Positions 1,902 through 46,373 are shown, counted from the stretch's first letter. The stretch is DNA of 64,000 bases from Candidatus Poseidoniales archaeon (GCA_028821675.1 JAPKFG010000001.1:7890-71889), one strand, 5' to 3'. The notes: a model not told the origin generated them from the letters alone. Numbers and translations: made by a program.

Positions 1902-4900
1902 TCATTCTTCTTCATTAATGATTCCAAGAATCTCCACATCGGAACTCTGCGTTTCATTCTCTTCGCGATAAGCTTCTATCTGTTCTTGAGTCCAACCTAC
2001 AGCAAGTAATTGTTCATCGCTCCATGCTTCCGTTTCCTGAGTTTCTAATCCAGCCATTTCAGATAGAATCTCGTCTGAGATGTCTTCATCTCTCTTGGCC
2101 CAGGCATGGTCAGGCAATTCATCATCTTCCTCAATGGGCATCTCTTCTCGGCGGCCAATCAATATCGATGTGAGTGCGATAAGCAGAATGAGTATAACAA
2201 AAATTCCGGCCACTGTGATGGTCGATGATGAACCATCCATACCTTGCTGAGTAGTGTTTTCTTCACTTGTTGTAACTGGAATAGCCTCGCGCGCGCGTAG
2301 GAGAAATGATTCCGATACTGAGAGTGATGTCTCATCGAGGCAAGCGAAGTAGAGTGTATGATTGGCTTCCGAACGTCCCGGTGGAGTCCATTCTTGAACC
2401 CACAACCCATCTGGTTCGGGGTGGTAAATTTGTGAAAACAATGTAATCTCATCTTTATCCTTCAGTAGGACAGAACACTCCATATTTTCAATTCCATCAG
2501 GGTCGCTAATTTCTACAATCAACGTCGACGTATTACCAGAAATTAATTCGATCGGCATCCGTGAGAAATCCAATTCTGGCTCGGAACCTCGTAATTCAAA
2601 AATCAATGTTTCTGAAAGTCCGGTTGTTCCATCGATATCTCTTAGATTCACGACCAATTCTACAGCCCCCAATGGCCAAGTCAAGAGATCGTCTGGATTG
2701 AGTTCCATTCGATAATATTGGGTGTGTTGTCCGGTTCCAGGCGCACAGGATGCAGGCGGAACTCCCTGTTCAAAGAAAATTGAACTAAATGCACTAGATG
2801 TGGGACCGGTAGGACCCAATCGAATACCTGCGTACTGTATGGGTCGTCCTCCTGTAATTCCAACCCAAATATCCGTACCTTCGGCACCCCGATTTATTGT
2901 ATCCACCAATATGTCATTCACACACAACGTGGGTGTCGAAATTTGAGGAGGGCTCAGGAACACGGGATGAGTCCAAGACCATTCCATATCAGCCCATATT
3001 CCACTCGTGATTCGAGTCGAAATAGACGCATCGCCAGATTCAAGATCGGGTGGAGCGGTGACGACATCTCCTTCCAACATTTGGTACCCTGCCCCAGGCC
3101 ATTCGATACTTGTCTCAACAGAATAGCTGGCTTGAGGGTCATCTTCGTCAATGATGTGAACCTGTATGCGATCTTGAGCCCCATCAAGATATGATTGACC
3201 ACCAATCGTCAATTCTGCATTCGGTGCCAAATCGATGGGCGTCAAACTGCGATTAGACCATTCAGTTCCATCTGCATGGAGGCTGATGAAAACAGGATCG
3301 AGGGTGCCGCCTGCTTGCGGTCTCCAAGAAGTCTGGTAACAGGTTTGACTGCCGCTAGTACTGGATACTGAAGGCGTGGGCAATTCATTGCCATCGACTC
3401 GGATTGAAGGGGTCTCAGTCTCGGTATTGTGATCCAAATCAATCACACATGCAGTCATCGCGTGATCTCTTCCACGAACCCAACCAGATGTGCCGTGTAT
3501 GGGTGGATCGATGCCGAGCCAAGGAGCCATGTCAGCCCCTTGGACATGAACACCATACCATGTTGCACTCGCATCCGTGATATTGAATGCGGCATCCCAG
3601 AAGGCCTCGACGCTCAACTCTTGTGCATCGTGAACGACCCAATAGAGATCCACACTGTCGAGAGGAGCGTCAGTTGGAAGGGAAATCGCCGCGGTCCAAA
3701 TCACGCCATCATTCTGTGAAGTGGCCGTAATCGGGAAGTATGTAGGATTGCTAGAATTGTTGTATCGCCAAGACAAGGTCGCTCCTGCGATACCAAAATC
3801 ATCGATGACGGAAATTCGACAAATGACCACACCGCCACGTGTCGCCGTCGTCGTTGAACAAGTCAATTCATCAATGGCCGGAGGTGCGTTAATTTCAATG
3901 TTCAGCAACGCGAGATTGTTGTCGACAACACGTTCGGGGTGTGCGTTCTCTGGAATCCAACGAACCAAGAATTCCACGAATCCTGTTCGAACTGGAGTGA
4001 CGTTTATGGGCAAGATGAGGCGACTTCCTACATCATTTCCACCTGGAATGGTCATCGAATGATTGGCCAAGAGAAGATTGTTTTGTCGATCCCTCACTTC
4101 AAGGAAACCGGTCGCTATGCCTGGAGCGAGATTCTCTAACAAAACCTCAAGCGTTCCGTTCTCTCCAATGGACAAACGATCAGGGGCGCGGACTTCAGAG
4201 ACGTTTACATCATGCAGACGGTCACCGTAGGCAGCCATCTTAGGATCTCCAATCACTGTGCCCATCCAAGAGAGAAGAACATTGGATGCCGCATAACATT
4301 CGGCCATCGTGTAACCATCTGCATAGCATGAGAACAATTGGTCTGGATTCGAAATAGCAGATAGATAGGGCTCGTAGACATAGCCTTTGACGCCAGAGAC
4401 GCCGTCATCAAGCAAATCAGCGATCAAACTCTGTCCGTAACTAGAATTGAACATGAATGTCCGTCCACCTGTACTCACGGCCGTCTCCGCAATACTGCCA
4501 TCTAACCAAGTGAAGTGAGGGCGAATTGGGTACAGTTTCAACGTATCAAAGAAAATCGAACCATTGTATGTTCCATCGGTGAATTCAGCAACTTGACGAA
4601 CAGCAAAACTAGTGGCACTTGCATCGGGGCGATATCGAAGTTGGCGGTTCTGCCAATCATCCGAGAAGGCCCTATCCTCAGAGGTGTTGACTGATAGCGA
4701 TGCGCCATTTGAATCGAAAGCTTCGACCTCTAGCCACCAATCACCTTCAACCCAACCTTCTCGCATCGAATATCCATCAAGAACCCAGGCATGTCCCTCA
4801 AAGTCGGCGTCGATGTCAAACACTTGTTCAACATAGGCAATCGAGTTGTTTGTGGTATTGAAGGTCGGACAAATCCATACGATTTCATCATGGACATCTG

Positions 4901-7031
4901 CAACCTCTTCTTCTGTCAGGGCAGCATCCCAAATTTGCACCTCGTCAATGACCCCGGTGAAATGTGTACTGCCAGCACGATTGACACCGAATTTGTAGAT
5001 TTCAATGCTGTTCACTGTCCCGTTGAGGACAGTCTGATTGAGCACCTCCACACCATCCAGATAGAGAGTTACGGTGTCATTAACGAAGGTGGCGACAAGG
5101 TGTTGCCAAACCGTTGGGTCGACCGCTCCGAAATTGTATGAGGAGTTGTGATACAATTCCCAATCTCCGGGGCTGCCACCTCCAGTCATAATTTGGAAAG
5201 AATCGTCATCTCCAGCAACATCATTCACGGCAATCGCTGAAGAATATCGTGGCTGCCCACTGTGATTGGCCTGAACCCAGAGGCTGACTGTGAAATCTGC
5301 CATAGTATCTTCGACGTCTACTCGGGCTTCATCATCCACACCATCAAAAAAGGCACAATTGCCCAAGACACAGGTTCGCCATTGGTTGCCATTGGTACCG
5401 GTGAAATTGAGATGAGCAGAACCCACAGAATCGTTGGCAACATCGCCGCTGTTCTCATCGAATTCCCAATGATGAATCAGGTCCACTTCTCTAACGGGAT
5501 AACTGCTTCCTCGTGTCAATACATTGGTTGGGACAGTTTGTTTGGACAAGCCCGGGCCTTCCCATTTGAGTTCCAATCCAGCATATCCACCATGCTCAAA
5601 GAATTCAGTTCGAAGTTCGTGTTCTCCCGCACCTAACCAGACTGTACCTGATCGCTCTTGCATGGCGTGGTGACCCTGATTGTCGACAATTTCGACATCA
5701 TCAATCCATAATTTTGATCCATCATCGCTTCGTAGATAAAACGTCCAATTACCAGCGGTTGGAATGTGAATGATGCCTGTGTGTCTTGCGCTCCAGTATT
5801 CAAGGAAGCGACTATCGAGGCCCGTCCAAGCGTTTTGTGTTGATGGCCAATCGAGATTCGGTTCATGCCGAACAAAATCTGGAGTTCGGTTCGAAAGGTT
5901 GACCATCGTGCTGACGTTGTATGTGACGCCATTGTTGTCGAAGTATTCAGCCAGCAGTCCATTGGTTGTCGACGCATCATTGGCCCCACATGAGGCGTCC
6001 TCAAGACGACCCTCCATCGCTGCATTTCCATTTCGTTTAGTCTCAGTCTGGCGGGCCCACCACCATTGTTCTCCAGGTGAAAGCGCTGGACCAATACCGT
6101 CCCAATATCGAGCGCCCGTCGGCCAACTGCCGTCGGATGTGTCGTAACCGGAATTGGACAACTCATTGCTGTCCCAAGAATCATCGTTGCTGCCCCAAGC
6201 GGAATACATTGAGAGGTTCTCCATATCGGTAACATAGGTACCATTCTGATTGAAGTGAACTGGGAAGCCCATGTTCGTCAGAGTTTCATTCGTTGTGTAG
6301 AGTAGGTCATTCCACCACTTGTATCCAGATCCATTTCGATTGGTAGCCAAATCGAGGACGGTTAATCCGTGTTGTCCCAAACTGGTGTTGGCTTTGGCGA
6401 TTAACCCCAAGGATGTATCGACATCATAACCGGTCAACCGAGTGACCAAATAGTACCCTTGCTCATCTCTCTGAAATGCTTTCATCTCATTGCCTGCAGC
6501 AGGCCCGTAGTTTGAATCGACATACCAATCAGCGAAGATGGATGGAGCATAGGGTCCGTCGATTAGGGCCAATTCTGAATCAAAGGAGGCACGAGAATTG
6601 GTCCCACCGTTGACACCGAGAGGTACGCCCTTCGTGGTGACTAGGACATTGATTTCAGTTAGATTACGTTCAGAAATCATCTGCAAAATAGGATTAGAGA
6701 AATAGGTCGTGAATTGATTGGAATTGATGATCTCGCTTGTTGGTGTGCTTTCATTTGTCAATAGAAGGACACGTTCCGGAGGGATATTGCGGGCCAGAGC
6801 GAAGGCGGTACCGATAGTTCGGCTCGCCTCACTTTGATTGTTGATGATGACTGCGACATCACTGTAGTCGGCAAAGGTTTGATGGGAAAATGGTTCCAGT
6901 ACGGCCACATCTCTGAACGGGGCTTCCTCCCACGCGTCCGCGTCGGCCCTCGCTTCCTCTGGAAGCGATACTGCGGTCCAACTCTGTAGTGAAATCAAGA
7001 GGACGAGGACGATGGCCAAGCGAGAGCGCAC
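1902..7031 (-). CDS. giant secreted surface glycoprotein (1709 aa) with PA14 and LamG-like domains, C-terminal TM anchor and acidic tail
   Basis: GTG start with GGTGA upstream. The N-terminal signal peptide is MRSRLAIVLVLLISLQSWTAVSLP. The PA14-like segment is LLAEYFDNNG...WTFYLRSDDGSKLWIDDVEIVDN. The LamG-like segment is CAFFDGVDDEARVD...TVTLYLDGVEV. There are dozens of N-x-S/T sequons. The C-terminal TM helix is ITVAGIFVILILLIALTSILIG, followed by a Glu/Asp-rich tail ending INEEE. Confidence 0.8.
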   Translation of the reverse strand: MRSRLAIVLVLLISLQSWTAVSLPEEARADADAWEEAPFRDVAVLEPFSHQTFADYSDVAVIINNQSEASRTIGTAFALARNIPPERVLLLTNESTPTSEIINSNQFTTYFSNPILQMISERNLTEINVLVTTKGVPLGVNGGTNSRASFDSELALIDGPYAPSIFADWYVDSNYGPAAGNEMKAFQRDEQGYYLVTRLTGYDVDTSLGLIAKANTSLGQHGLTVLDLATNRNGSGYKWWNDLLYTTNETLTNMGFPVHFNQNGTYVTDMENLSMYSAWGSNDDSWDSNELSNSGYDTSDGSWPTGARYWDGIGPALSPGEQWWWARQTETKRNGNAAMEGRLEDASCGANDASTTNGLLAEYFDNNGVTYNVSTMVNLSNRTPDFVRHEPNLDWPSTQNAWTGLDSRFLEYWSARHTGIIHIPTAGNWTFYLRSDDGSKLWIDDVEIVDNQGHHAMQERSGTVWLGAGEHELRTEFFEHGGYAGLELKWEGPGLSKQTVPTNVLTRGSSYPVREVDLIHHWEFDENSGDVANDSVGSAHLNFTGTNGNQWRTCVLGNCAFFDGVDDEARVDVEDTMADFTVSLWVQANHSGQPRYSSAIAVNDVAGDDDSFQIMTGGGSPGDWELYHNSSYNFGAVDPTVWQHLVATFVNDTVTLYLDGVEVLNQTVLNGTVNSIEIYKFGVNRAGSTHFTGVIDEVQIWDAALTEEEVADVHDEIVWICPTFNTTNNSIAYVEQVFDIDADFEGHAWVLDGYSMREGWVEGDWWLEVEAFDSNGASLSVNTSEDRAFSDDWQNRQLRYRPDASATSFAVRQVAEFTDGTYNGSIFFDTLKLYPIRPHFTWLDGSIAETAVSTGGRTFMFNSSYGQSLIADLLDDGVSGVKGYVYEPYLSAISNPDQLFSCYADGYTMAECYAASNVLLSWMGTVIGDPKMAAYGDRLHDVNVSEVRAPDRLSIGENGTLEVLLENLAPGIATGFLEVRDRQNNLLLANHSMTIPGGNDVGSRLILPINVTPVRTGFVEFLVRWIPENAHPERVVDNNLALLNIEINAPPAIDELTCSTTTATRGGVVICRISVIDDFGIAGATLSWRYNNSSNPTYFPITATSQNDGVIWTAAISLPTDAPLDSVDLYWVVHDAQELSVEAFWDAAFNITDASATWYGVHVQGADMAPWLGIDPPIHGTSGWVRGRDHAMTACVIDLDHNTETETPSIRVDGNELPTPSVSSTSGSQTCYQTSWRPQAGGTLDPVFISLHADGTEWSNRSLTPIDLAPNAELTIGGQSYLDGAQDRIQVHIIDEDDPQASYSVETSIEWPGAGYQMLEGDVVTAPPDLESGDASISTRITSGIWADMEWSWTHPVFLSPPQISTPTLCVNDILVDTINRGAEGTDIWVGITGGRPIQYAGIRLGPTGPTSSAFSSIFFEQGVPPASCAPGTGQHTQYYRMELNPDDLLTWPLGAVELVVNLRDIDGTTGLSETLIFELRGSEPELDFSRMPIELISGNTSTLIVEISDPDGIENMECSVLLKDKDEITLFSQIYHPEPDGLWVQEWTPPGRSEANHTLYFACLDETSLSVSESFLLRAREAIPVTTSEENTTQQGMDGSSSTITVAGIFVILILLIALTSILIGRREEMPIEEDDELPDHAWAKRDEDISDEILSEMAGLETQETEAWSDEQLLAVGWTQEQIEAYREENETQSSDVEILGIINEEE

Positions 7032-7054
7032 GGAATGTCACCCATACCCTGAAC

Positions 7055-7109: not shown

Positions 7110-7161
7110 TGAGGCGTTTTCGGCGATGGGCATAAATCCCACCGCCCCCCCCTGTCAATGT

Positions 7162-7800: not shown

Positions 7801-7801
7801 T

Positions 7802-7874: not shown

Positions 7875-8384
7875 TTAATGTCCAAACAAGGGTTCTTCGT
7901 AATCGTCATCAGAAAGCGTTCGCCATAGCCCATCTGGAACATCATCGTAAACACCGGCATAGGGATCATCGTTGGAAAGTCGCTTCTTGGGTTTCTCAAG
8001 AGCATTCAGAGCTTCAGGCTTGAACTTCCAGTAGTGAATTCGCCATTCTCGACCATCCCATAGAGTCGTTTCTTCGGACTCAGTTGTGAGGAGATCGTAA
8101 TCTTGAAACATGTAGAACAGGTTTCTGTCAGTGGGCTCTAGGGCATTGTCGATGATTCGATCGTAAAACCCGAAGAACCCAAGTGCGTGTTCAGCCATAC
8201 CTTCAGCGGTCATGGTTTCCATATCGGGATCAATGTGAGTTTGAATCGCCGCTGTCAATGATGCTAGACTCATTCCCATCTCTATTGTCCCCCAAACGGC
8301 GTGTTGGTACATCGCCGGTTGATATAGGGGAGTAGCCGGTCCTATTTCAACGGTTGGCGGTTTTCGCCCCGAAGGGGCGTACAT
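7875..8384 (-). CDS. hypothetical protein (acidic, no recognisable domain)
   Basis: 169-aa ORF with no recognisable motifs. The true start may be an internal Met near 8312, because the upstream 30 nt overlap the agmatinase start. Protein-like composition. Confidence 0.4.
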   Translation of the reverse strand: MYAPSGRKPPTVEIGPATPLYQPAMYQHAVWGTIEMGMSLASLTAAIQTHIDPDMETMTAEGMAEHALGFFGFYDRIIDNALEPTDRNLFYMFQDYDLLTTESEETTLWDGREWRIHYWKFKPEALNALEKPKKRLSNDDPYAGVYDDVPDGLWRTLSDDDYEEPLFGH

Positions 8385-9346
8385 TATGCTGTTTCGTCAC
8401 GATTAAACGGTTGATTCCACGCGTCCAGAATGTGACCGAGTTTGCGCAAGGGACCTTTCTCGGATTGCCCGAGAGCGAAGATGTGGCTGATGTTGCCATT
8501 CTCTCTGTTCCATACGAGTTGACAACTTCCTACGGTCAAGGGACCTGTGCTGGACCTGAAGCTGCCCTACGAGCATCCGCTCAAGTGGAATTGTATGACC
8601 CTCTTCTACCCGAGGATCTACCCTGTGGATTCACCCTACACACGGCCCAACCGTGGGATGGAGTGGGGGGTAATCTTCAGGAACAATTGGAAGGTATCAC
8701 TAACTATGTTTCACAGTTTCAATCATCATTTCCAATCATCTTGGGTGGGGAACATGGGATGCTGCCAGCGATTATGAAGGCTGTTTCTCAACAAGTGGAT
8801 TTGAGCGAAATTACTCTCGTCCAAATCGATGCTCACGCAGATTTACGTGACGAACTCGATGGTGAACCTGACAGTCACGCCTGTGCTGCGCGTCGCTCAT
8901 TGGATCTAGGTGTCGGCAAGATTCTACAAATCGGAATTCGAGCCTTTGCTCGCGAAGAAGCGACATTTGCAGCCGAAGATGCGCGGGTGGAATCATGGCT
9001 TGCCCGGGATGTATTGAATCCGTGCGGAGGCGAGGCGATGTGGCTCAATTGGTTGAACACCCTCTCCGAGATTGAAGGCCCTGTCTGGTTGACACTGGAT
9101 ATAGACGGTTTGGATGTCGCCTATGTTCCAACCACGGGAACCCCAGTTCCTGGAGGCTTGGCATATTGGCAAGTTGTGGAGACCATCGAAACCATCGCAT
9201 CGGCACCGGGTGCCAATTGGTTGGGGGCGGATGTCAACGAAATCGTGCCCGATTCCAATAATCATGTGACTGAATTCACAGCAGCAATGTTGGCAACCAA
9301 GATTGTGGCCGCCCATCTTGCACGTAGATTGGAGGATGAAGCATGA
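8354..9346 (+). CDS. speB: agmatinase (arginase/ureohydrolase family)
   Basis: Mn-binding motifs of the arginase family are present: GGEHGM, DAHADLRD, LTLDIDGLD and DVAYVPTTGTPVPGGL (the SxDxDxxDP-type loop). The N-terminus FLGLP...DVAILSVPYELTTSYGQGTCAGPEA is typical of SpeB. Confidence 0.8.
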   Translation: MAVFAPKGRTLCCFVTIKRLIPRVQNVTEFAQGTFLGLPESEDVADVAILSVPYELTTSYGQGTCAGPEAALRASAQVELYDPLLPEDLPCGFTLHTAQPWDGVGGNLQEQLEGITNYVSQFQSSFPIILGGEHGMLPAIMKAVSQQVDLSEITLVQIDAHADLRDELDGEPDSHACAARRSLDLGVGKILQIGIRAFAREEATFAAEDARVESWLARDVLNPCGGEAMWLNWLNTLSEIEGPVWLTLDIDGLDVAYVPTTGTPVPGGLAYWQVVETIETIASAPGANWLGADVNEIVPDSNNHVTEFTAAMLATKIVAAHLARRLEDEA

Positions 9347-9708
9347 ATGCAAAAGGTCGTCACATCACATTGGATTACACCGGATTCACGGGAGATGGGA
9401 AATGGATGCTGACAGTATTACGTGCAGCGATTTCGCGCTCCGGTGCTAGAGAAGTTCACGCCCATGTCGAAGAATTTGATGGTGTTGAGAGCCCCACTGG
9501 ATTCGCAGCAGTCGTCCTCATCGACGAAAGTCATGTCAGTGCGCATTGTTATGCTGATCAGGGTATTCTGGCTGTAGACTGCTTTACTTGTGGAGGGATT
9601 GATCCGACGGGAATCGTCGATGACATTCACGAACAATTGTCCAAGGCAGTTCCTACAATCAATCTGATTCAGAGAACAGAATTGGACCGATTCGTGACGG
9701 AGGAGTAA
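9343..9708 (+). CDS. speH: S-adenosylmethionine decarboxylase proenzyme (small archaeal/bacterial class 1 form)
   Basis: 121 aa. VVLIDESHVSAHCYADQGILAVDCFTCG matches the AdoMetDC self-cleavage and active-site region (ESH...TWPE...DVFTCG). It overlaps the agmatinase stop by 4 nt, which indicates translational coupling. Confidence 0.8.
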   Translation: MNAKGRHITLDYTGFTGDGKWMLTVLRAAISRSGAREVHAHVEEFDGVESPTGFAAVVLIDESHVSAHCYADQGILAVDCFTCGGIDPTGIVDDIHEQLSKAVPTINLIQRTELDRFVTEE

Positions 9709-9710
9709 CA

Positions 9711-10622
9711 ATGCGCGATTTCGTAGAACACCACTTTCGTCACTTCAATGCCGGAGAATTGCGTCGGTGTACAGAATCACTCCGAGATTTCATCGCAAAT
9801 GATGGGCGATTGATGATTACCTTGGCCGGAGCCATGAGTACAGCGGAGATTGGGCGCAGCCTTGCGCCAGCTATTCGTGCGGGGAAAATTCACGCAATTT
9901 GCTGCACAGGTGCCAATCTTGAGGAGGATCTCTTCCATTTGATTGCGGCTTCACATTATGGGGATGTGCCTAATTGGAGAGACCTTTCACCAAATGAAGA
10001 ATCCCAATTGATAAATCGAATTACCAATAGGACAATTCCAGAAGGAAAAGCAATACGAAAAGTTGAATCTCAATTGATTTCTTTGTGGAAAGACACACCT
10101 GCACGATTGCCCCATGAATTCCTGTATGATTTAGTAAAAAAGGTAGAGGCTGATGCGAATCCAGATGATTCATGGCTCCTAGCCGCAGCTGAGGCCAACC
10201 TACCACTGTTCGTACCAGGATGGGAAGATTCGACCCTAGGCAACATCTTCGCTGCACGAGTCATTGATGGCACCGTAGATGTGAATACTGTTCTCAGTGG
10301 CACACACTACATGCTGGCGTTGGCGACATGGATTCGAGAACATCCCATCAACGGCTTCCTACAGGTGGGGGGTGGAATCGCCGGTGATTTCCCCATCTGT
10401 GTGGTCCCGATGCTGCGTCAAGATCTGGGTGAAGATGTTCCCCTTTGGGCATGGTTTGCACAAATCTCCGAATCGCGCCCATCCTATGGTGGATACTCAG
10501 GGGCGCCACCAAATGAGAAGATTGGTTGGGGGAAACTTGGTGTTGAAACACCGAAGTTCGTTATCGAATCTGATGCGACAATCGTATTGCCCATTATCCT
10601 GACTTCTCTGCTCGACGAGTAA
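9711..10622 (+). CDS. deoxyhypusine synthase-like paralog lacking the catalytic lysine (possible pseudoenzyme)
   Basis: Its DHS-fold motifs are MITLAGAMSTAEIG, AICCTGANLEEDLF and the C-terminal GYSGAPPNEKIGWGKLG. Where canonical DHS, including the second copy at 51511, has GGGISKHH, this protein has VGGGIAGDF. So the Lys and both His residues are replaced. Confidence 0.65.
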   Translation: MRDFVEHHFRHFNAGELRRCTESLRDFIANDGRLMITLAGAMSTAEIGRSLAPAIRAGKIHAICCTGANLEEDLFHLIAASHYGDVPNWRDLSPNEESQLINRITNRTIPEGKAIRKVESQLISLWKDTPARLPHEFLYDLVKKVEADANPDDSWLLAAAEANLPLFVPGWEDSTLGNIFAARVIDGTVDVNTVLSGTHYMLALATWIREHPINGFLQVGGGIAGDFPICVVPMLRQDLGEDVPLWAWFAQISESRPSYGGYSGAPPNEKIGWGKLGVETPKFVIESDATIVLPIILTSLLDE

Positions 10623-15461: not shown

Positions 15462-15462
15462 T

Positions 15463-16104: not shown

Positions 16105-16198
16105 TACTTAACTCTCGGTTGTATAGTGGGAGTATCTTGTCCTATATGAAGGATTGGAAGGCGGCGGATTCAAGGGAGAGACATGGGTGGGCCATTCG

Positions 16199-23196: not shown

Positions 23197-23197
23197 G

Positions 23198-24142
23198 TTA
23201 CTCTTCCTCAGAAAGTGCCTGCTCAACCTCTGGCGCAGTTTCCATTGTGTGGTTCGCTACACGTTCCCAAATTGCAGGAATCGCGAGTAGAATGAAGGCT
23301 GAAATAACCAATTTCGTCCATGTTGAACCCGGGACGAAATCACTGTTATCCGACAATCCCAGTTTGATTGAACCCACCCAAGGAATCTCGCCTCCAGCTA
23401 CACCTACTAGCCAATCATCGCGAACTGCACCAACCGCCTCCCCGTTTTCATCGGTCAATCCTCTCCAAGTGTGAGTGGTTTCTCCGACTGCAGCGTACTG
23501 ATCGACGTTGCATCCGTTGGTGGCAATATTATCGCCTGAAGTCAGGTAACCAGCATGACCGGGGTCCCAGTTGCTGACTGTCAAATTCTGCCCATTGTTG
23601 CACTGATAATCCAATTCAAGACTAATTGAAGTTGCATTGTTCACATTGGTGCCGGGCACACTCCATGTGAGTATGCAGGTTCCAGCCTGCCCATCGGCAT
23701 CGATTGATATGGGGTCCCAACTTCCGTCATTCCCAATGCAAGGATCTTCCGCACCACGCTCAGGTGTTGCAGTTTCATCGGCCACCGCACGCATGATCGC
23801 ACGGTGGATGACAGGTGTCATCGTGCCGCCATTCTTTCGGTAAATGATGACGTCACCGGGCATGCCGTGATTCTCGTAGCCTTCGTAGGGACCACCATCC
23901 TCAATCGCCTCAGCATAGGTGATGATGTTCTTGCGATCTTCTGACATGACGAGGACGAGATCGCCAGGGTCGATCGCGCCAACGTTTCCCTCATCCTCAT
24001 GCATCATCGAACCAGATTCGATGACGACCATGGGTGGCCATGAACCTGTCATCAGGACAAGGACGGCGATGAGGGTGGCAATGAGGCCACTGGCAAGCAA
24101 GGCTTCCCTCACCCAGGCCCAAGCCTCACCCATCGGCCTCAC
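23198..24142 (-). CDS. sec11: signal peptidase I, archaeal Sec11/S26B type, with glycosylated extracellular insert and C-terminal TM
   Basis: N-terminal TM, then VVIESGSMMHEDEGNVGAIDPGDLVLV (the SGSMxP...GD box of type I signal peptidases). A second TM lies near the C-terminus, with an EEE tail. Confidence 0.7.
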   Translation of the reverse strand: MRPMGEAWAWVREALLASGLIATLIAVLVLMTGSWPPMVVIESGSMMHEDEGNVGAIDPGDLVLVMSEDRKNIITYAEAIEDGGPYEGYENHGMPGDVIIYRKNGGTMTPVIHRAIMRAVADETATPERGAEDPCIGNDGSWDPISIDADGQAGTCILTWSVPGTNVNNATSISLELDYQCNNGQNLTVSNWDPGHAGYLTSGDNIATNGCNVDQYAAVGETTHTWRGLTDENGEAVGAVRDDWLVGVAGGEIPWVGSIKLGLSDNSDFVPGSTWTKLVISAFILLAIPAIWERVANHTMETAPEVEQALSEEE

Positions 24143-24942
24143 TCCTCTTCCATTCGAGTTTCCGTAGTTTCAGGTTCTGGACGTTCGCCCGGTGCAGGGA
24201 AGGACACCCAGAGTAGGAACATGGAAACTAGAAGCACAATCCAACCGGAAATGTCATCAAAATACGGTGCTGGGACTGAGTCGATTCGCTCGCCATTCAA
24301 CCAATCCCAAATGACTAGAGTGTTGACGCGCTCCTCGGCCGCATTGCGAACAATTCCAAACGACATGTTGCAAAGTTGGAGAATTGTCATTAAAAATCCA
24401 ACAAAACCAAGCGAACGATTCAACCAAGGTTCACGAAGAAATTCTACATCAAGCATTCGTGAAAAACGTGAATCTTCGGTTCGCCACCAATTGATGAGAA
24501 TATCTTCGGGCGCGCTCTCTAGATCTTCAATCAGTGTAACGCGACCTTTGGTGAGACCATGTTCGATGAAATGCGCTTTCAAGCGAGCGCTCCAAACGGA
24601 TCCTAGTAGGGTTGCGGCCTCTTCGGCTTCCTTACGTTGCCGACCCAATTCTGGGCGTGAAGAAGAATTCATAACTTCCATCAAGAAACTCCATTTTCCC
24701 TGATAATGAAGGAATTCAGGTCCTACAAAAATAAGAACGGTGAATCCGATGAATAAGCCAGCCCATGTTCCATCTGTGAGATGTGCCAAATCCGGATCTT
24801 GTGTACCCCCTAGGAAGAAGAAGTAGATGATTGCCCACATGACCATGCTGAATGAAAAAAATGAAACTGTTCCTAAGATAAACAAATGGCGATCTCTTTT
24901 GCTTTCCCACCAACGCTTGAGTGGGGTGAAAATTCCGTTCAT
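24139..24942 (-). CDS. polytopic membrane protein, unknown function, GPEFLH-motif family (paralog of 19324..19908)
   Basis: 267 aa. WAGLFIGFTVLIFVGPEFLHY matches the motif in 19324..19908. Its stop overlaps the signal peptidase start by 4 nt (ATGA-type coupling). The C-terminal tail is RMEEE. Confidence 0.5.
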   Translation of the reverse strand: MNGIFTPLKRWWESKRDRHLFILGTVSFFSFSMVMWAIIYFFFLGGTQDPDLAHLTDGTWAGLFIGFTVLIFVGPEFLHYQGKWSFLMEVMNSSSRPELGRQRKEAEEAATLLGSVWSARLKAHFIEHGLTKGRVTLIEDLESAPEDILINWWRTEDSRFSRMLDVEFLREPWLNRSLGFVGFLMTILQLCNMSFGIVRNAAEERVNTLVIWDWLNGERIDSVPAPYFDDISGWIVLLVSMFLLWVSFPAPGERPEPETTETRMEEE

Positions 24943-36694: not shown

Positions 36695-38236
36695 TCACGG
36701 GAAAGACCTCCTAAGAGATAGAAATGGATTGAATGGACTGCCTCGACCCTCATCAGATTCAACGGCCATCGTCATTCGAGATAGACCGTAGTGTTCAGCC
36801 GCAGCAGCGACAAATGGAGTCACATCAGATGAATGTACAGACCATCCCTCTGGCCAATTAACCTCGATGAAATCAGTAGTTGTCTCCCCTGAATGATATG
36901 CAGGGTGACCCATTATGTCGGCAAGGAAACCCAGATTGGTCGTCACACCTAGCAATATGAAATCTTCACACGCCCGTTTCATACGCCGGATTGCGGACTC
37001 GCGCTCGGGTGCATGCACAACCAATTTGGCCAACATGGGATCAAAATCAATGCTTACTTCATCACCTTCACGAACACCCGTATCGAATCGTATGCCTGGA
37101 CCCGTTGGTGGACGGAACATGGCCATGGGTCCAATGGCTGGAAGGAAATTATTGGCTGGATCTTCAGCATAGATTCGAACTTCAATCGCGTGACCTCGGA
37201 TTGAAAGGTCCGATTGGGCAAAAGGCAGGGGCAATCCAGCCGCAACTCGTATTTGTTCAACAACCAAATCTACACCACTGATACATTCCGTTATCGGATG
37301 CTCAACTTGGAGACGTGTGTTCATTTCCAAAAAATGAAAATCTCCGTCTTCAGAAAGAAGGAATTCGACAGTACCTGCGCCTTCATAATCAACAGCTCTG
37401 GCAGCATTCACAGCTGCTTCACCCATCCGGCTTCGGGTGGATTCATCGAGTACAGGAGAAGGAGCCTCCTCGACAACCTTCTGATGTCGGCGCTGGATAC
37501 TGCATTCACGCTCAAACAGATGAACAGCATTTCCAAGCGTGTCAGTTAGAATTTGAATCTCTACGTGCCGGGATTTCTCAAGAAGGCGCTCTACATAGAC
37601 GGTGCCATCTCCGAATGAGGCGGTGGCTTCACGACTTGCAGCGGCGTACTCTCTCTGAAGGTTTCGAGGCTCACGAACCACACGCATGCCCTTGCCCCCT
37701 CCACCTGCGCTGGCCTTCAGCAACAATGGATATCCCACTCGAGTTGCAGCTCGAACGAGTTCATCCACTATTTCATCAGGATTCTCAAGGGCCAATTCTT
37801 CACCAGGGATGACTGGCACCCCAGCAGCAACCATGGCACGTCGAGCACTGATTTTATCTCCCATTTCATCGATAGCATGGCCCGAAGGTCCAATCCAAAC
37901 GAGGCCCGCGGCTTTGACCGCATTGGCAAAGGAACTGCGCTCAGAAAGAAAGCCATATCCTGGATGAATTGCATCTGCACCTGTCTCTTCGGCCGCGGCC
38001 AATATTGCTTCGATATTGAGGTAGGTTTCTGCAAGATCATCTCCTGGCAGGAATACGGATTCATCGGCTGTTTGTTGATGCAATGAACCTCGATCCGCTT
38101 CTGAATAAATAGCAACCGAGCCCAAACCTAATTCAGCGCATGAACGAAAGATACGACAAGCAATTTCACCGCGATTAGCGACCAGAATCTTGGACAACGG
38201 ACTGGGTGCGCCCTCCATCCAGTCTGGTCCACCCAT
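36695..38236 (-). CDS. biotin carboxylase subunit of acyl-CoA (methylcrotonyl/propionyl-CoA-type) carboxylase
   Basis: KILVANRGEIACRIFRSC at the N-terminus, with the ATP-grasp GGGGKGMRVV and the BC C-terminal domain. The start is set at MGGPDWMEGAPS (ATG at 38236, GGAGTG upstream), 7 nt after the hydratase stop. Confidence 0.85.
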   Translation of the reverse strand: MGGPDWMEGAPSPLSKILVANRGEIACRIFRSCAELGLGSVAIYSEADRGSLHQQTADESVFLPGDDLAETYLNIEAILAAAEETGADAIHPGYGFLSERSSFANAVKAAGLVWIGPSGHAIDEMGDKISARRAMVAAGVPVIPGEELALENPDEIVDELVRAATRVGYPLLLKASAGGGGKGMRVVREPRNLQREYAAASREATASFGDGTVYVERLLEKSRHVEIQILTDTLGNAVHLFERECSIQRRHQKVVEEAPSPVLDESTRSRMGEAAVNAARAVDYEGAGTVEFLLSEDGDFHFLEMNTRLQVEHPITECISGVDLVVEQIRVAAGLPLPFAQSDLSIRGHAIEVRIYAEDPANNFLPAIGPMAMFRPPTGPGIRFDTGVREGDEVSIDFDPMLAKLVVHAPERESAIRRMKRACEDFILLGVTTNLGFLADIMGHPAYHSGETTTDFIEVNWPEGWSVHSSDVTPFVAAAAEHYGLSRMTMAVESDEGRGSPFNPFLSLRRSFP

Positions 38237-38243
38237 GTGGAGT

Positions 38244-39119
38244 TCACTCCTCTTTCCAATTCGGGGTACGCTTCTCAAGGAATGAGGACAATCCCTCTTG
38301 CCCTTCTTCAGAACCTCGCATCGCACTGGTTTTGTCGAGTGTCCACGTTCGTAGTTCTTCGTCAGTTCCCGTCCAGCGATCAAAGGTGAGGGTGAGTTTC
38401 TTTGCTTCTGCAACCGCCATTGGACCTGTCGTGAGAACCTCATCAATTACAGAGTTTTCAGCGCCTTCAAGGGATTTCGATATCTGGTTCACAAGTCCAA
38501 TGCGAAGTGCTTCTTCGGATCCGATTCGTCCAGCCAACATAGCGAGCCTTCGAAACTGTGCACTGCCAACCTTGCGATACACGTAGGGGCCGATGACAGC
38601 TGGGAGAATACCCAATTTCCCTTCCGACAGAGCGATTTGAGCGTTGGGCTCGAGGATGACATGGTCTAGGCAGGCGATGAGACCAGCTCCACCTCCGAGG
38701 GCGACACCCTGAATCTTGCCAATAGTGAAACAAGGATGGGACCAGAGACTGTTGAACAAACGATTGAGGCGTTCGGAATCCTGTCTATTCTCCTCAGCAC
38801 TTTTCGCACCTGCATCCCGCATCATGTTGATGTCGGCGCCAGCACAGAAGTGCTTACCAGCACCAGATAGGACTAGCACCCTAAGGTAAGGCGCTCCTGT
38901 AGAATCCTCAAGAGTACCTCGCTCACCGATTGAACGATCACGCGTCCAATCGAGTACTGAGATGATTTCACTGATGAGTTCGATGTTCAGCGCATTGTAC
39001 ACATCCTCTCGAGTCAAGGTCAGATGGATGACCGAACCCTCGATATTGAGGGAGCATAGGTTAGTTTCTGGCTTTAAATCTCCAATTGCATAATTTGACA
39101 TTCCAATTGCTCCTTTCAC
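38244..39119 (-). CDS. enoyl-CoA hydratase/isomerase (crotonase) family, methylglutaconyl-CoA hydratase-like
   Basis: [17 protein letters not shown] oxyanion-hole motif plus a second crotonase helix region. It overlaps the carboxyltransferase stop (39116-39119). Confidence 0.8.
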
Positions 39120-40732: not shown

Positions 40733-40779
40733 CCCTTAGGGGGTGCGAATACGGGCTTGGCCTTGAACACTCGCCCGTT

Positions 40780-42096: not shown

Positions 42097-42133
42097 GAGA
42101 ACCGCTCAGGGTCATCGCTTCAAAGCGATTGCT

Positions 42134-42856
42134 TCACTCTTCTTCGCTGACTTCGGGCGCTTCGTCGACTTGACGGGCTTCGTGAACTTCGCGGAACACA
42201 ATTGTCTGTACACCGACGTGATCTCGCAACGTTCGAATGAGGCTGAACTTGGTAAAGGCCCAGTTCTGATTGTATCCAACGGACTCAGGGAGTGTGATGG
42301 TCACATCATCGCCATCGAAAGTAACCTCAAATCCATCCAGACCCGTGTTGGTTTCTAAGAGGGTGGAGACTTTCTCGGCACGATCTTCGACGACCTTGAC
42401 GATGCGATAATTGTAACGCAGCGTGCGGCCAGCGAGTGGGTGGTTGAAGTCGATTCGAGCACGACCAGCACGGACCATTCGAAGAATTCCTTGCTTTCCA
42501 TTGATTTCTACCGGGCCACCAATGGCAAGACTGTCAGGATCACGCACGGAGCGTGCAAGAACATCTTGTCCCATCGTTTCAACCGCATTGGGGTCACGCT
42601 CGCCATATCCATCCTCTGGCGCAATGTCGAATTCATAATCGGTGTCGGCATCAGCTTCGGTCAAATGTGCCTCAAATCCAGCAATCAAACGACCGTCGCC
42701 AATGACAGTGATGAGGGGAGTGTATTTTCGATTCTCATCGAACTGATCTGCTTCCTTTGCAACTTCCTCTCGAGTGGTCTCAATGAGAGTGTCATCATCC
42801 ACATTGTATAGGTCGTAATCGATATGGATGATAGAACCGTTCTCCATTTTGCACAC
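42134..42856 (-). CDS. FKBP-type peptidyl-prolyl cis-trans isomerase (long archaeal SlyD/FkpA-like)
   Basis: GDGRLIAGFEAHL...FNHPLAGRTLRYNYRIVKV has the FKBP domain with IF insert. Acidic C-terminus ending EVSEEE. Confidence 0.8.
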   Translation of the reverse strand: MCKMENGSIIHIDYDLYNVDDDTLIETTREEVAKEADQFDENRKYTPLITVIGDGRLIAGFEAHLTEADADTDYEFDIAPEDGYGERDPNAVETMGQDVLARSVRDPDSLAIGGPVEINGKQGILRMVRAGRARIDFNHPLAGRTLRYNYRIVKVVEDRAEKVSTLLETNTGLDGFEVTFDGDDVTITLPESVGYNQNWAFTKFSLIRTLRDHVGVQTIVFREVHEARQVDEAPEVSEEE

Positions 42857-42921
42857 CTGCCTAGCATTGTAGGCGGCCCGGCGACCGACTTCCCCTTTAT
42901 GAGCGTGCGTATGGCTAAGCC

Positions 42922-42936
42922 GAGCCCGTAGGGCTC
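42922..42936. terminator. hairpin immediately downstream of the ccmF stop
   Basis: GAGCCC-GTA-GGGCTC, a perfect 6-bp stem overlapping the stop codon. Confidence 0.3.
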
Positions 42937-45142
42937 ATTCTTCCTCTTCTTTTGGAATCGGAGGTGTCATAATCCAATTCAATGCAGTTCCAATCAAAAT
43001 GAGGGACCAACCCATCCAGACCAGATGACTGCCAGTCAAATCATAGATGACAACACGAATCCGGTCAACAGAATCGCCTTGCTGCATGAATGATGTTAGA
43101 TAGAGTTCATTCGCTTGACTTTGATCGAAAATCATCACCAAATCACCATGAGGGCGGTGCCAAATATCTGTTTCTGGACGCGCGGGAATTCCCCCTTCAT
43201 CAAATCGAAGCATTCCTGGTGTCATCGTTGCAATGATTTCGCCATCTGCCTCTTTCCGAATTTCCACCGTCACGACTATTTTGCCATCGCCAACATCCTC
43301 GTCCCATACATCATCATCAGAACTGGTCGCTGTCAATTCAGTAAATGTGTACCAATAATCCCCATGCTCGATAGGAGTATCTTTTGCGAGCATGACGATG
43401 TGACTGGGATCACCACGCTGAACTAGCGTCGTGGTGAACACGTGACCAATGAGCAGCAACAAAATGCCCAGATGAGCCACATGAATAGCCATCCGGCGAA
43501 GCTGCAATGGCTTCCGACGAAGTTGGAATTCACCATATCGGATCCAGATCAATCTGGCAATCGGCGGGACTGAGAATAGAAGAAGAGGGAGGGCAAAGCC
43601 AGCAATCATCCCTCGCGTGATTCCTTCCGATAAGAGATGGTCCGCATCGCCAGGTAATGCATCGCCCACGTAGGCAGCGAACAAGATACTGAATGCAATC
43701 ATACCGCCCAATAGCCGTGGAATCAAATGTGGTTCGACGACCTTACGCCAACTGTAAACCATGAGTCCTAGAGCGGCCATACATAGAAGAGGCAATCCGA
43801 AGATTTCGTGCCATGCAAGATTGGTCCCATCGACCTCAGCGAGCAACAACAACCAGGTGAGCAAGAGGAAGGGGGCACCGATGGCTAATGGAACCCAGAC
43901 GACTACTCGTTGCTGCCAACGTCCATCGGTCCAATCCAATGGTGGATCTTCCTGATCACCTAACAAAAACATTGGCGATAGAAAACCAAGCATTCCAATC
44001 ACTGCAGGTATCATTTCTAGGAGGAAGGCCCAGTAACTGAAAAGCATCAGCATCACGCCAGCAATCATCCAGATTACGCGTTCTTTTGCGGCTCTTTGAT
44101 TCCACAACAGGAATGCGAATACCCCAGCCAGAATTCCAACCTCCAATGTGCCCATCCAGGATCCTATAAGGGCACCTACAAGGATGGCTAAAGGTGCCCA
44201 TTCCTGTTCCTCAGTATTTGCAAAATGCCGTGTTCCCAGCCACATCAAACCTGCAATAATGAGTAGATAGAGATGGACTTCGAGGCCCGCCGGGTCATCA
44301 AAACCAAGTTCCAAAATCCGTTGAATTGGACCCATTGATGGATCGATTTCACCTTCGGCAACAAATGCATGGACACTATCCCAGACTCCATTTGCGCGTG
44401 TGACCAGTGTTGCGTGGATTGCGAAGAACGCAGGCACAATTCCTAATCCCACAAACCATTGATCTTCATTGGCCATACCCTTGGGCAATCTGAGATGAAG
44501 AAGAAGGATGAGGGAAATCCATGGCAACAGAGAACCTGTCTCTACCGGATCCCATGCCCAATATCCACCCCAATCCAATACGGTGTAAGCCCACAACCCT
44601 CCAAGGCCAACGCCAAGTGTCCCTACCAACAATGCGGGTCTTGCAAGGTGAAGGATTCGGTCTCTCGCGGGCGCGCCCGCTAAGAGCATGGCTGAGATGG
44701 CATGTACACCGACCCCCACACAGAGTGTGTAGAATGCAAAGATGAGCGGAGGATGAATGACCATTAAATCGGTCTGGAGCAGAGCGTTTAGACCTGGACG
44801 AGTGATCGCATCACTGGGAGTTGCACGGAATGGATTTAACATCAGCGCGATGAGGAGAAGTAGAGTTGAGAATCCAATCAACAAACGAAGGCGGAACTGA
44901 TGTTGAGAATCGGTTTCAGTGGGATGTTGTTCGCCATCAATTAGGATTAGGGCACCCAGCATGGCCACCCATAGCAACAAGGGACCTTCACGACCTGCCC
45001 ATATTGCGCTGATTCGATAGAAGAAAGGAAGATCAAAACCACCATTGTTCCATACATACTCTATGCTTGAAGCATCGATGAGAAACAAGAACAACAGAAT
45101 CGTAAACGGCAGCATCAGCAGAATACCGAGGAGCCTTCTCAT
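42935..45142 (-). CDS. ccmF: cytochrome c-type biogenesis protein CcmF-like (heme lyase, WWD domain)
   Basis: The Trp-rich signature is GGLWAYTVLDWGGYWAWDPVETGSLLPW (the WGGxWxWDPVEN motif of CcmF/CcmC/CcsA). It has more than 12 TM helices and a C-terminal soluble domain. The start is set at MRRLLGILLM (GGTGAT upstream), which avoids overlap with the GGR stop. Confidence 0.7.
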   Translation of the reverse strand: MRRLLGILLMLPFTILLFLFLIDASSIEYVWNNGGFDLPFFYRISAIWAGREGPLLLWVAMLGALILIDGEQHPTETDSQHQFRLRLLIGFSTLLLLIALMLNPFRATPSDAITRPGLNALLQTDLMVIHPPLIFAFYTLCVGVGVHAISAMLLAGAPARDRILHLARPALLVGTLGVGLGGLWAYTVLDWGGYWAWDPVETGSLLPWISLILLLHLRLPKGMANEDQWFVGLGIVPAFFAIHATLVTRANGVWDSVHAFVAEGEIDPSMGPIQRILELGFDDPAGLEVHLYLLIIAGLMWLGTRHFANTEEQEWAPLAILVGALIGSWMGTLEVGILAGVFAFLLWNQRAAKERVIWMIAGVMLMLFSYWAFLLEMIPAVIGMLGFLSPMFLLGDQEDPPLDWTDGRWQQRVVVWVPLAIGAPFLLLTWLLLLAEVDGTNLAWHEIFGLPLLCMAALGLMVYSWRKVVEPHLIPRLLGGMIAFSILFAAYVGDALPGDADHLLSEGITRGMIAGFALPLLLFSVPPIARLIWIRYGEFQLRRKPLQLRRMAIHVAHLGILLLLIGHVFTTTLVQRGDPSHIVMLAKDTPIEHGDYWYTFTELTATSSDDDVWDEDVGDGKIVVTVEIRKEADGEIIATMTPGMLRFDEGGIPARPETDIWHRPHGDLVMIFDQSQANELYLTSFMQQGDSVDRIRVVIYDLTGSHLVWMGWSLILIGTALNWIMTPPIPKEEEE

Positions 45143-45146
45143 CGGA

Positions 45147-46373
45147 TCACCATCCGTAGTACTTGGCACGACTGTAACCAAATGCGAGCATCGCGGGAAT
45201 AATCCGGCGGAAATACAAACTAGGTTTTCGAACCAACAAACGAAGTCCGACCATCGCTTTCCCGTGTGGTCCCATGGCAGACATTTCTTGGGGGAAACAA
45301 CGACCCATCAATGACATCTCATCATCACTAAGAGCATAGAGAGCAGATTTGCCCTTGAGAATTTTTTCATACGGTGGGAATTCTCGTTTCCATGCTGCCT
45401 GATAGGATGCAAGATTTGAATCGGATAGGTCTCCTGAATCAATGGCCTCCGCGGCAGTTTTCGCTGCTAAAACAGCTGACTTGAGAGCCAAGTGTGAGCC
45501 GCCCTCGAAGAGAGGAGATGTGAATCCCGCGGCATCGCCGACCAGCATCAATCCATCAGAATATGTCCATTCATGTGGACCTGAAATAGGAATTGTTCCA
45601 CCAAATCCACGAACCGAAACAGAACCATCACGCCATGGAGGATTGGTGATTTCAAGATTTGAGAAATGAGTGATGTCGATAAAGGCATCCAAGTCTTTCA
45701 CAAGGCCTTTCTTATCCTCACTAACCAGACCCACGTTTGCACGTCCATCGCACTTTGGAATCATCCAAAGATATCCTTTCTTTGCATATTCTGGCCAGAT
45801 GTAAAAATCAAGATACCCATCGTTAGGAACATCGTGCATTTCGTATTGAATGCCGGCAATCACTTTAGGGCGTTCGTTGAGTTTAGTTAGTTTTGAGCAG
45901 ATCCCCGCAACACCAGATGCATCGATGAGAATTTTGGCAGTAATTGGGAAGGTGTCCCCTTTGCCTTCACACAACCAACCTTCGAATTTACCATCGGATT
46001 CTATACGAGTCATTCCAGTCAATTTGTGACCTAGATTGAGGCTCGCTCCCTCTCCGACCGCTTCATCGGCAATCCACTGTTCAAACAAGTGCTTTTCAAG
46101 GACATAACCTGGCTCAGAAAGTAGCTTCTTAGTGCCGTCTGGAAAGATGACGCGAATGCCTTCAACGCGCAAGCTAATCACAGAATCAGGAAGATCTAGT
46201 TCAAGATTGGCAACGGCGATATCTGACAAACATTCCCCACAATGGACAGGGGTGCCAATCTCAGAGTGATCTTCGATGAGAATTACTGACAATCCGGCCC
46301 TCGCAGCATGCAGGGCTGCAGCGCCCCCACCGGGGCCTGCTCCGATGACGAGGACATCACATTCGGCTGCCAT
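45147..46373 (-). CDS. geranylgeranyl reductase family (digeranylgeranylglycerophospholipid reductase)
   Basis: FAD motif DVLVIGAGPGGGAAA and PVHCGECLS. Overall collinear with archaeal GGR. The start is set at MAAECDVLVIGAGPGG. Confidence 0.8.
   Translation of the reverse strand: MAAECDVLVIGAGPGGGAAALHAARAGLSVILIEDHSEIGTPVHCGECLSDIAVANLELDLPDSVISLRVEGIRVIFPDGTKKLLSEPGYVLEKHLFEQWIADEAVGEGASLNLGHKLTGMTRIESDGKFEGWLCEGKGDTFPITAKILIDASGVAGICSKLTKLNERPKVIAGIQYEMHDVPNDGYLDFYIWPEYAKKGYLWMIPKCDGRANVGLVSEDKKGLVKDLDAFIDITHFSNLEITNPPWRDGSVSVRGFGGTIPISGPHEWTYSDGLMLVGDAAGFTSPLFEGGSHLALKSAVLAAKTAAEAIDSGDLSDSNLASYQAAWKREFPPYEKILKGKSALYALSDDEMSLMGRCFPQEMSAMGPHGKAMVGLRLLVRKPSLYFRRIIPAMLAFGYSRAKYYGW

Follow-up and report, generated by a model that had tools for sequence, protein, structure and literature searches.

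Several unrelated proteins encoded on a 64,000-nucleotide stretch of a Candidatus Poseidoniales genome (GCA_028821675.1, JAPKFG010000001.1:7890-71889; here called the window, with positions counted from its first letter) end in runs of glutamate. These oligo-glutamate tails have two separate origins: an embedded Shine-Dalgarno (SD) sequence, in which the last codons of one gene serve the start of the next, and a Glu-Glu-Glu (EEE) end maintained at the protein level. The core of the finding is three, probably four, protein families with an undescribed, strongly selected -EEE-COOH end, namely an FKBP-type peptidyl-prolyl isomerase, an S26/Sec11-type signal peptidase, a CcmF-like membrane protein, and probably a further membrane protein, GPEFLH. 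The two origins, selection on the protein, and restriction to the lineage are, taken together, held with high confidence. The explanation that we consider best overall adds to the two origins a reader protein that would recognize the EEE end as a docking motif, and we put its probability at about one half. The finding is composite, as about half of the tails originally listed are embedded ribosome-binding sites or are not conserved.

The eight Glu-rich termini quoted by the initial annotation, which was made from the sequence alone, are all present as given. On the minus strand lie those of a giant adhesin (adhesin 1, INEEE, 1905-1913, GAA GAA GAA TGA), the signal peptidase (LSEEE, 23201-23209, GAG GAA GAG TAA), GPEFLH (RMEEE, 24142-24150, GAA GAG GAG TGA), enoyl-CoA hydratase (ECH; WKEE, 38247-38252, GAG GAG TGA), FKBP (VSEEE, 42137-42145, GAA GAA GAG TGA), and the Cytochrom_C_asm ("CcmF") protein (PKEEEE, 42938-42949, GAA GAG GAA GAA TGA). 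On the plus strand lie those of AdoMetDC (VTEE, 9700-9705, GAG GAG TAA) and of an SdhA fragment (HEEEE, codons at 274-285, stop at 286-288), the latter outside the range of 1902-45181 given in that annotation. With the selection bias that comes from a window flagged for its richness in these tails, EEE ends were counted in 6 of 50 window genes, against 0.019 expected from a Glu fraction of 0.072 (P = 5e-14) or 0.027 expected from internal EEE triplets (11 in 20,185, or 5.4e-4; P = 4e-13), so the tails lie far above composition, as had been claimed. Glu was found at positions -1 to -6 in 13, 15, 9, 5, 2, and 5 of the 50 genes, which limits the excess to the last three residues; Lys was found in none at -1 and -2, and Asp was slightly raised at -1. 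The 12-mer GARGARGAR plus stop occurred six times (both strands, any frame), each time at a true gene end, and among 491 open reading frames (ORFs) outside the greedy gene set, one ended in EEE and two in EE.

The initial annotation had offered two artifactual readings of its own. A mutational or compositional quirk beside stop codons is contradicted by the Glu fraction, the internal EEE frequency, and the spurious ORFs and other frames; composition alone was ruled out on the same grounds and by control loci of other organisms, in which 0 of 752 ORFs had the tail. Mis-called stops were likewise rejected: orthologs of independent assemblies share the stop position, all three stop codons occur, and conservation is not seen downstream of the stops. 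A generic purine-rich RNA signal was also discarded, as Lys, Arg, and Gly codons show no enrichment and GAA and GAG differ among genera.

FKBP (FKBP_C and FKBP26_IF by Pfam; 42134..42847, minus strand) has a protein-level EEE end. It was found in 118 of 120 nonredundant homologs (65 to 91% identity), with Glu at -1, -2, and -3 in 120, 120, and 118 of them and D, T, G, A, I, N, S, or E at -4. Asp occupied 1 of 360 positions at -1 to -3, versus 42 of 120 at -4. The tail that follows the conserved EVHE anchor is 7 to 54 amino acids long, with EEE last throughout, and variants carrying an SAP domain or a His-rich insertion lack EEE at the old position and have it at the new terminus. Across genera the codons are GAA GAA GAG, GAA GAA GAA, GAA GAG GAG, GAA GAG GAA, or GAG GAA GAG, and in Poseidoniales loci no coupled downstream start was found at the stop. 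In most genera the gene is syntenic with its CcmF-like neighbor. An eRF1-like (baeRF/acVLRF1) gene separates FKBP from DUF63 in one high-GC Poseidoniales genus (locus L149, 10846-11958).

The signal peptidase (23198..24133, minus strand; named from source databases) also has a protein-level EEE end, kept in 101 of 120 homologs (47 to 96% identity), the rest ending in EQE, xEE, or DDE. Glu was found at -1, -2, and -3 in 118, 108, and 109 of the 120, and Asp at 6 of 360 positions from -1 to -3. The tail past the last transmembrane (TM) segment is hypervariable, at 6 to 56 amino acids, while the EEE end is fixed at the terminus, and the codons across genera are GAG GAA GAG, GAA GAG GAG, GAA GAA GAA, or GAG GAA GAA. 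The gene is convergent with an M50 site-2 protease gene, with stops 1 nucleotide apart in the window; since this arrangement holds in every locus, no start follows the stop. At its 3' end, the M50 gene (window 21652-23200; L019, 10001-12214; L102 to L104, L150, and L151) always abuts or overlaps, by at most 57 nucleotides, the 3' end of a convergent EEE-ending gene; in L019 this gene is FKBP, and in most genera it is the signal peptidase.

The CcmF-like protein, a polytopic Cytochrom_C_asm (CcmF/CcsA-like) membrane protein by Pfam (42935..45142, minus strand), is the third family with a protein-level end: its 17 orthologs in the fetched loci comprise 14 ending in EEE, 2 in EDE, and 1 in LHS. 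Codons across genera are GAG GAA GAA, GAA GAA GAA, or GAG GAA GAG, and no coupled start follows the stop in Poseidoniales loci. A hairpin, GAGCCC-UAC-GGGCUC (42922-42936, minus strand), begins within the UGA stop of this gene. The 14 nucleotides past the stop are identical in nine of nine close orthologs, with upstream codons varying, and the spacer as a whole has an ordinary fold energy (z = -0.24).

GPEFLH (24139..24942, minus strand) is a Poseidoniales-specific membrane protein with four TM segments and without a Pfam family, in one operon with the signal peptidase. Homologs number only 43 among 5.8 billion proteins, the named ones coming from Thermoplasmatota metagenome-assembled genomes (MAGs), and EEE is present in 38 of 40 with a complete end. 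The junction reads GAA GAG GAG TGA GGCCG ATG, with the signal peptidase start at 24133, and the next start is 0 to 16 nucleotides away in every locus. Because the gene is always start-coupled, its protein-level end is only probable; in L104 the SD of the peptidase lies past the stop, and EEE is nonetheless retained. Its last codons probably do double duty, as a protein motif and as the SD of the signal peptidase start. An AlphaFold model (predicted local distance difference test [pLDDT] score, 66.6; predicted template modeling score, 0.39) puts residues 251-267 below a pLDDT of 50, consistent with a disordered tail; its confidence was too low for a fold search. In Poseidoniales-type loci GPEFLH always lies directly upstream of the signal peptidase, and it may be a lineage-specific partner of that enzyme.

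Together, these alignments show that FKBP, the signal peptidase, and the CcmF-like protein keep -EEE under purifying selection on the protein, and GPEFLH is probably under a like protein-level selection. The codons vary, each of the three stop codons occurs, and no start follows, which places the selection on the amino acids and their terminal position. Asp is one transversion away and frequent at -4, yet almost excluded at -1 to -3, so the constraint is specific to Glu and not one of mere charge.

The other origin accounts for SdhA, AdoMetDC, and ECH, whose Glu ends are the next gene's GGAGG read in frame as GAG GAG. In coupled operons, a gene carries within its final codons the SD of the gene that follows, as GGAGG from a GGAGGTGATC-like consensus; GGAG, GAGG, or GGTGA stands ahead of most operon-internal starts in the window, fitting such an SD. 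The SdhA tail (EEEE) reads GAG GAG GAA GAA TGA G ATG (274..292, plus strand; sdhB ATG at 290), the AdoMetDC tail (EE) reads GAG GAG TAA CA ATG into a deoxyhypusine-synthase-like gene (9700..9713, plus strand), and the ECH tail (KEE) reads GAG GAG TGA ACTCCAC ATG (38234..38252, minus strand), with the biotin carboxylase ATG 7 nucleotides on. A GGAGG-like match lies in the last codons of SdhA (GAGGAGGAAGAA), AdoMetDC (GGAGGAG), ECH (GAGGAG), and GPEFLH (GAAGAGGAG) and is absent from many tails of FKBP and of the CcmF-like protein, where the sequence is GAAGAAGAG or GAAGAAGAA. Across 22 Poseidoniales loci, a co-oriented start was always found 0 to +16 nucleotides past the stop of these four genes (for two SdhA/GPEFLH rows, the automated scan had listed an in-ORF ATG at -17 instead of the start 1 to 2 nucleotides past the stop).

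Orthologs of SdhA and ECH show the same junctions. In L103 the SdhA junction is CAC GAG GAG GAA TGA A ATG, and in L019 the protein ends in QEGE (CAG GAG GGG GAG TAG C TTG), where EEE is gone and GGAGGGGGAG is retained; keeping the SD and not EEE indicates that nucleotides rather than amino acids are conserved at this end. All close ECH orthologs retain GAGGAGTGA and a start 6 to 7 nucleotides downstream, and distant ones end in NNEE or WQDE. Geranylgeranyl reductase, which ends in YYGW in every ortholog (45140-45158, minus strand), is a second case of a conserved C terminus shaped by an embedded ribosome-binding site: its last codons and stop (GGA TGG TGA TCC G ATG) are the SD GGTGATCC for the CcmF-like start at 45142.

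Adhesin 1, a giant PA14/Laminin_G_3 surface protein (1902..7031, minus strand) with a signal peptide and a TM segment at residues 1607-1625, has an 84-amino-acid acidic cytoplasmic tail ending in INEEE. This end is not conserved, orthologs ending in VNED (L102) and NNLS (L151). The initial annotation's view of a single phenomenon on at least seven proteins therefore does not hold, three of the tails being the SD of the next gene and the adhesin tail lacking conservation.

Embedded SD sequences also explain the EEE ends of putative archaeal viruses, taken here as thermosome-encoding contigs of IMG/VR. On these contigs, 5 of 336 ORFs end in EEE against 0.13 expected, and homologs retain EEE or EE. 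The next ATG lies -4 to +2 nucleotides from the stop in eight of nine EEE or EE cases examined; for the ninth (L114), the scan flagged no following ORF of at least 50 amino acids, yet an ATG lies 2 nucleotides past the stop. The tail codons are GAGGAGGAR or similar, and the viral EEE ends are an SD effect that lends no support to a protein motif. The contigs reach 110 kb, with tightly coupled genes and GAGGAGGAR closing upstream ORFs, and are probably viruses of marine archaea. Their group II chaperonins are 33 to 38% identical to the window thermosome (L107, L108, L111, L114, L120, L134, L143, and L145, among others); a scan of viral contigs with the thermosome as a single protein gave no match.

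Extending the nucleotide-level account to every tail, so that GAR runs would be SD sequences, another RNA or DNA signal, or stop-proximal mutational bias and the amino acids incidental, is highly improbable. It holds for SdhA, AdoMetDC, ECH, and the viral cases, and it would fit the invariant tail codons of close orthologs, the conserved hairpin after the CcmF-like stop, and the frequent abutment of EEE genes on a convergent gene. For FKBP, the signal peptidase, and the CcmF-like protein, however, no start follows the stop, GGAG is often missing, and the mix of GAA and GAG differs from genus to genus. Purine-rich Lys, Arg, and Gly codons are not enriched (Lys is absent), spurious ORFs and other frames lack the pattern, and the internal EEE frequency is only 5e-4.

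The window derives from an uncultured Marine Group II (MGII; subgroup MGIIb) archaeon of the Poseidoniales, family Thalassarchaeaceae, and is not bacterial. Members of Marine Group II rank with the most abundant archaea in surface seawater; they are uncultured, and their cell biology is barely described. Every CcmF-like ortholog at 83 to 94% identity came from a MAG named Candidatus Poseidoniales, Thalassarchaeaceae, or Marine Group II euryarchaeote; the organism names given in the source databases for FKBP and signal peptidase homologs agree, and an exact copy of the seryl-tRNA synthetase is present on TARA and other marine metagenome contigs. The window proteome is acidic (D+E, 14.2%; K+R, 8.5%).

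Control loci came from a metagenome scan with an FKBP alignment, which gave 75 loci of other archaea and bacteria at an FKBP identity of 25 to 38%. None of their 752 ORFs of at least 100 amino acids ended in EEE (0.33 expected), 6 ended in EE, and 9.0% ended in Glu; five MGII-like loci from the same scan had EEE at 6 of 45 ORFs. An outgroup locus of 63% GC has an FKBP ending in SEEE within a long acidic tail and a Glu end in none of its 20 other genes. For FKBP clusters at less than about 45% identity, the representatives end in diverse low-complexity tails, only about 7 of them in EEE. The trait may extend beyond the Poseidoniales, as a distant marine archaeal locus (L148; GC content, 38%; FKBP 33% identical) has two noncoupled EEE ends among ten genes, those of FKBP (VIEEE, 1918-2667) and an 88-amino-acid protein (ELEEE, 4072-4338).

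Six of the 105 ORF families from pooled Poseidoniales loci have EEE, and each of the six is a window family; the window therefore has an exceptional share of these ends, and for the genome as a whole the rate is probably a few percent (3 to 6%). The tail is absent from the abundant housekeeping proteins S2, L7Ae, thermosome, DnaK, MC1, NDK, aIF5B, and Cdc48. Lys was found at neither of the last two positions in the 105 pooled families, versus about 3 expected per position. The lineage-specific tag proposed initially is accordingly upheld in part: the tail is restricted to the lineage, and on FKBP, the signal peptidase, and the CcmF-like protein it behaves as a selected tag, which does not extend to SdhA, AdoMetDC, ECH, or the adhesin. 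The literature search turned up no account of a C-terminal EEE motif, whether in MGII or in other archaea.

All carriers would expose the tail to the cytoplasm. The topologies of the adhesin and the signal peptidase (for the latter, an N-terminal anchor, an external catalytic domain, and a C-terminal TM segment) put their ends in the cytoplasm, positive-inside counts predict the C-terminal tails of GPEFLH and the CcmF-like protein inside, and FKBP and SdhA are cytoplasmic. In the mechanism that we propose, three glutamates and the free carboxylate would form a short C-terminal docking motif on a disordered, length-variable cytoplasmic tail. The hypothetical partner would either bind the end in a basic pocket, a "carboxylate clamp," or be an enzyme that modifies Glu specifically, and docking would tie envelope-biogenesis proteins to one common factor. 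Such a trans-acting cytoplasmic reader of the free tri-glutamate end is tentatively ranked as the most likely mechanism, favored because Asp is excluded, the count of three is fixed, and the carriers are linked pairwise (FKBP with the CcmF-like gene, GPEFLH with the signal peptidase).

Two candidates in the window were considered for roles around the tail. The PDZ-bearing site-2 protease, named in the initial annotation as a possible reader, is unlikely to be one, as topology predicts the tails to be cytoplasmic and the PDZ domains of site-2 proteases are normally extracytoplasmic. The M14 carboxypeptidase was rejected as a Glu-trimming enzyme, being instead a secreted carboxypeptidase T-like protein. 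The ATP-grasp protein of the window is biotin carboxylase.

The main rival to a reader is a protective cap or anti-degron, in which three glutamates would block carboxypeptidases or AAA+ systems (Cdc48/VAT-20S, LonB, or tricorn-type) with no reader needed. Disordered, length-variable, and predicted cytoplasmic tails suit it, as do the absence of Lys at -1 and -2, the acidic ends generally common in the lineage, and the richness of that lineage in peptidases (M14, M17, M50, signal-peptide peptidase, and rhomboid in the window). It also fits the bacterial link between last residues and degradation rate, by which the C-terminal residues alter protein level up to fourfold and charged or polar ends are favored (PMC7246954). 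An electrostatic or steric cap should, however, accept Asp or mixed D/E, yet Asp is almost excluded at -1 to -3; exactly three Glu are kept and not a graded acidic run; and most proteins, including the abundant S2, L7Ae, thermosome, DnaK, MC1, and NDK, have no such tail. We regard a cap as unlikely.

Weaker again is an effect at the ribosome, by which a Glu-Glu-Glu nascent end or P-site tRNA-Glu would tune aRF1/ABCE1 termination or release and aid insertion of the last TM segment. C-terminal residues affect termination efficiency in bacteria. Selection acts here on exactly the last three residues, which lie at the peptidyl-transferase center during termination, and three of the four families have a TM segment near the end. 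FKBP is soluble, however, highly expressed genes are without the tail, the last TM segment lies 6 to 56 amino acids from the end, and there is no link to the stop codon (TGA, TAA, and TAG all occur) or to the following base. This puts an effect at the ribosome at long odds, below those of a cap.

Several observations weigh against a docking motif with its reader. The reader is putative, a partner that we infer from the tails. The robust protein-level set is small, at three families plus GPEFLH with its confounding SD, and EEE ends none of about 55 Poseidoniales families from outside the window, so the tail is not a proteome-wide code. FKBPs of unrelated archaea sometimes end in EEE inside long acidic tails. 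Tail codons are invariant among close orthologs, which makes a short-range constraint on nucleotides possible. Relaxation is joint in one genus and confined to the peptidase in two lineages: in the high-GC genus (L149/L150) the signal peptidase ends in GEE, GPEFLH in SEE, and the CcmF-like protein in EES, while in L151/L152 only the signal peptidase has changed, to EQE or DDE.

Some of these observations would suit mere coincidence, each family keeping EEE for a structural or catalytic purpose of its own with no shared mechanism; only three or four families are involved, some outside FKBPs end in EEE within acidic tails, and relaxation of the tail is mixed, joint in one genus and in the peptidase alone in two. 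Against this, three of about 105 unrelated families would have EEE in common with a probability of about 1e-5, or of about 0.01 if any tripeptide is allowed (an estimate from composition), the controls had none in 752, the motif sits on nonconserved disordered tails and not on folded domains, and the genes are linked pairwise. Coincidence is improbable on this balance.

A fuller form of the docking proposal would have the Poseidoniales use -Glu-Glu-Glu-COO- as a cytoplasmic address that links envelope-biogenesis proteins to one reader or Glu-specific enzyme. The address would then be carried by the Sec11-type signal peptidase, its lineage-specific partner, the heme-handling CcmF-like protein, and the FKBP chaperone. 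Such an address would be the archaeal equivalent of the EEVD/TPR system or of the tubulin-tail codes. At this level of detail we consider the proposal doubtful.

Compared with known systems, the tail is closest in behavior to the EEVD/TPR system, to the Glu tails of tubulin and S6, and to the -EE C-degron; none of them fits as a family, given the differences in sequence, carriers, and domain of life. The EEVD-COOH of eukaryotic Hsp70 and Hsp90, bound by TPR cochaperones through a carboxylate clamp, is like EEE acidic, placed at the extreme C terminus of a disordered tail, and shared by unrelated carriers, with the position relative to the free carboxylate outweighing upstream sequence. Here the motif is EEE, on an archaeal FKBP, a signal peptidase, and membrane proteins, and a TPR reader would be hypothetical. 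The Glu-rich tails of tubulin (TTLL ligases and cytosolic M14 carboxypeptidases) and of Escherichia coli S6 (RimK) resemble it as terminal handles, recognized or else lengthened and trimmed by enzymes, that are specific to Glu and not Asp, whereas here the Glu are genetically encoded and fixed at three. The -EE C-degron of CRL4-DCAF12 likewise makes terminal Glu-Glu a specific protein-level signal; it is ubiquitin dependent and eukaryotic, and the EEE carriers are long-kept housekeeping enzymes that fit a degron poorly.

Other systems correspond only to parts of the picture. Translational coupling through an embedded SD matches SdhA, AdoMetDC, ECH, the viral ORFs, and probably GPEFLH, with starts -4 to +16 nucleotides from the stop; FKBP, the signal peptidase, and the CcmF-like protein fall outside it. 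The C-terminal bias of bacteria (Weber et al. 2020, PMC7246954) resembles the tail in tying nonrandom last residues to protein level and degradation; bacterial C termini favor Lys and Arg, whereas here Lys is absent at -1 and -2 and a discrete EEE is found on few families. PGF-CTERM/archaeosortase signals are also lineage-restricted archaeal C-terminal signals, but they are tripartite (motif, TM helix, and basic tail) and cleaved on the outer face. An archaeosortase-type signal was rejected here, as EEE is acidic, lies past the last TM segment, and faces the cytoplasm, and FKBP has no TM segment.

A C-terminal tripeptide conserved on several MGII proteins would offer a rare sequence-level handle on protein organization in these cells, with an xxxEEE-COOH peptide as bait for the partner and the tail as a marker for ocean metaproteomes. 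Where archaea and their viruses use SD sequences, a ribosome-binding site embedded in the upstream gene is enough to produce a Glu-Glu end, and such ends need to be removed before a C-terminal "motif" is proposed. Selection is solidly supported, and the scope of the finding is small.

Acidic ends of other kinds occur in the same genomes. A giant CARDB surface protein (end at window 30180-30227, plus strand; L102, 3996-9026; L150, 2918-7909) ends in a poly-Asp/Glu run followed by G-W-E, as DDDDDDDDGWE, DDGGWE, or DDGWE in three genera and as DEDDDY in a fourth. This tail lies past the TM anchor, has no coupled start, and may be a separate conserved acidic C-terminal signature. The Glu-rich end of the biotin carboxyl carrier protein (window 36218-36685, minus strand; L149, 17586-18101) drifts among genera, as IEEIE, IDETE, ITGEE, SDEEE, or an extended ...EESN.

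Pfam bears out the family names of the Glu-tailed proteins except the signal peptidase and GPEFLH, which have no Pfam match. Gene content of the window by Pfam includes SdhA/SdhB, two giant surface proteins, agmatinase, AdoMetDC, two deoxyhypusine synthases, M14 and M17 peptidases, DnaK, thermosome, rhomboid, Hjc, and the M50 site-2 protease with its PDZ domain. It further includes signal-peptide peptidase, SerS, acyl-CoA carboxylase genes, ECH, DUF63, FKBP, the Cytochrom_C_asm protein, geranylgeranyl reductase, UbiD, UbiA, UvrB, aIF5B, NDK, L7Ae, MoxR, and a ParA-like ATPase. A single coupled cluster (8354-10622) consists of agmatinase, AdoMetDC, and a divergent deoxyhypusine-synthase-like gene, and the canonical second deoxyhypusine synthase lies at 51481-52488, 40 kb from the divergent copy. 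The thermosome adjoins a bacterial-type DnaK, probably with GrpE (13572-17773), and the C terminus of this DnaK is DDDGDD, not EEVD-like.

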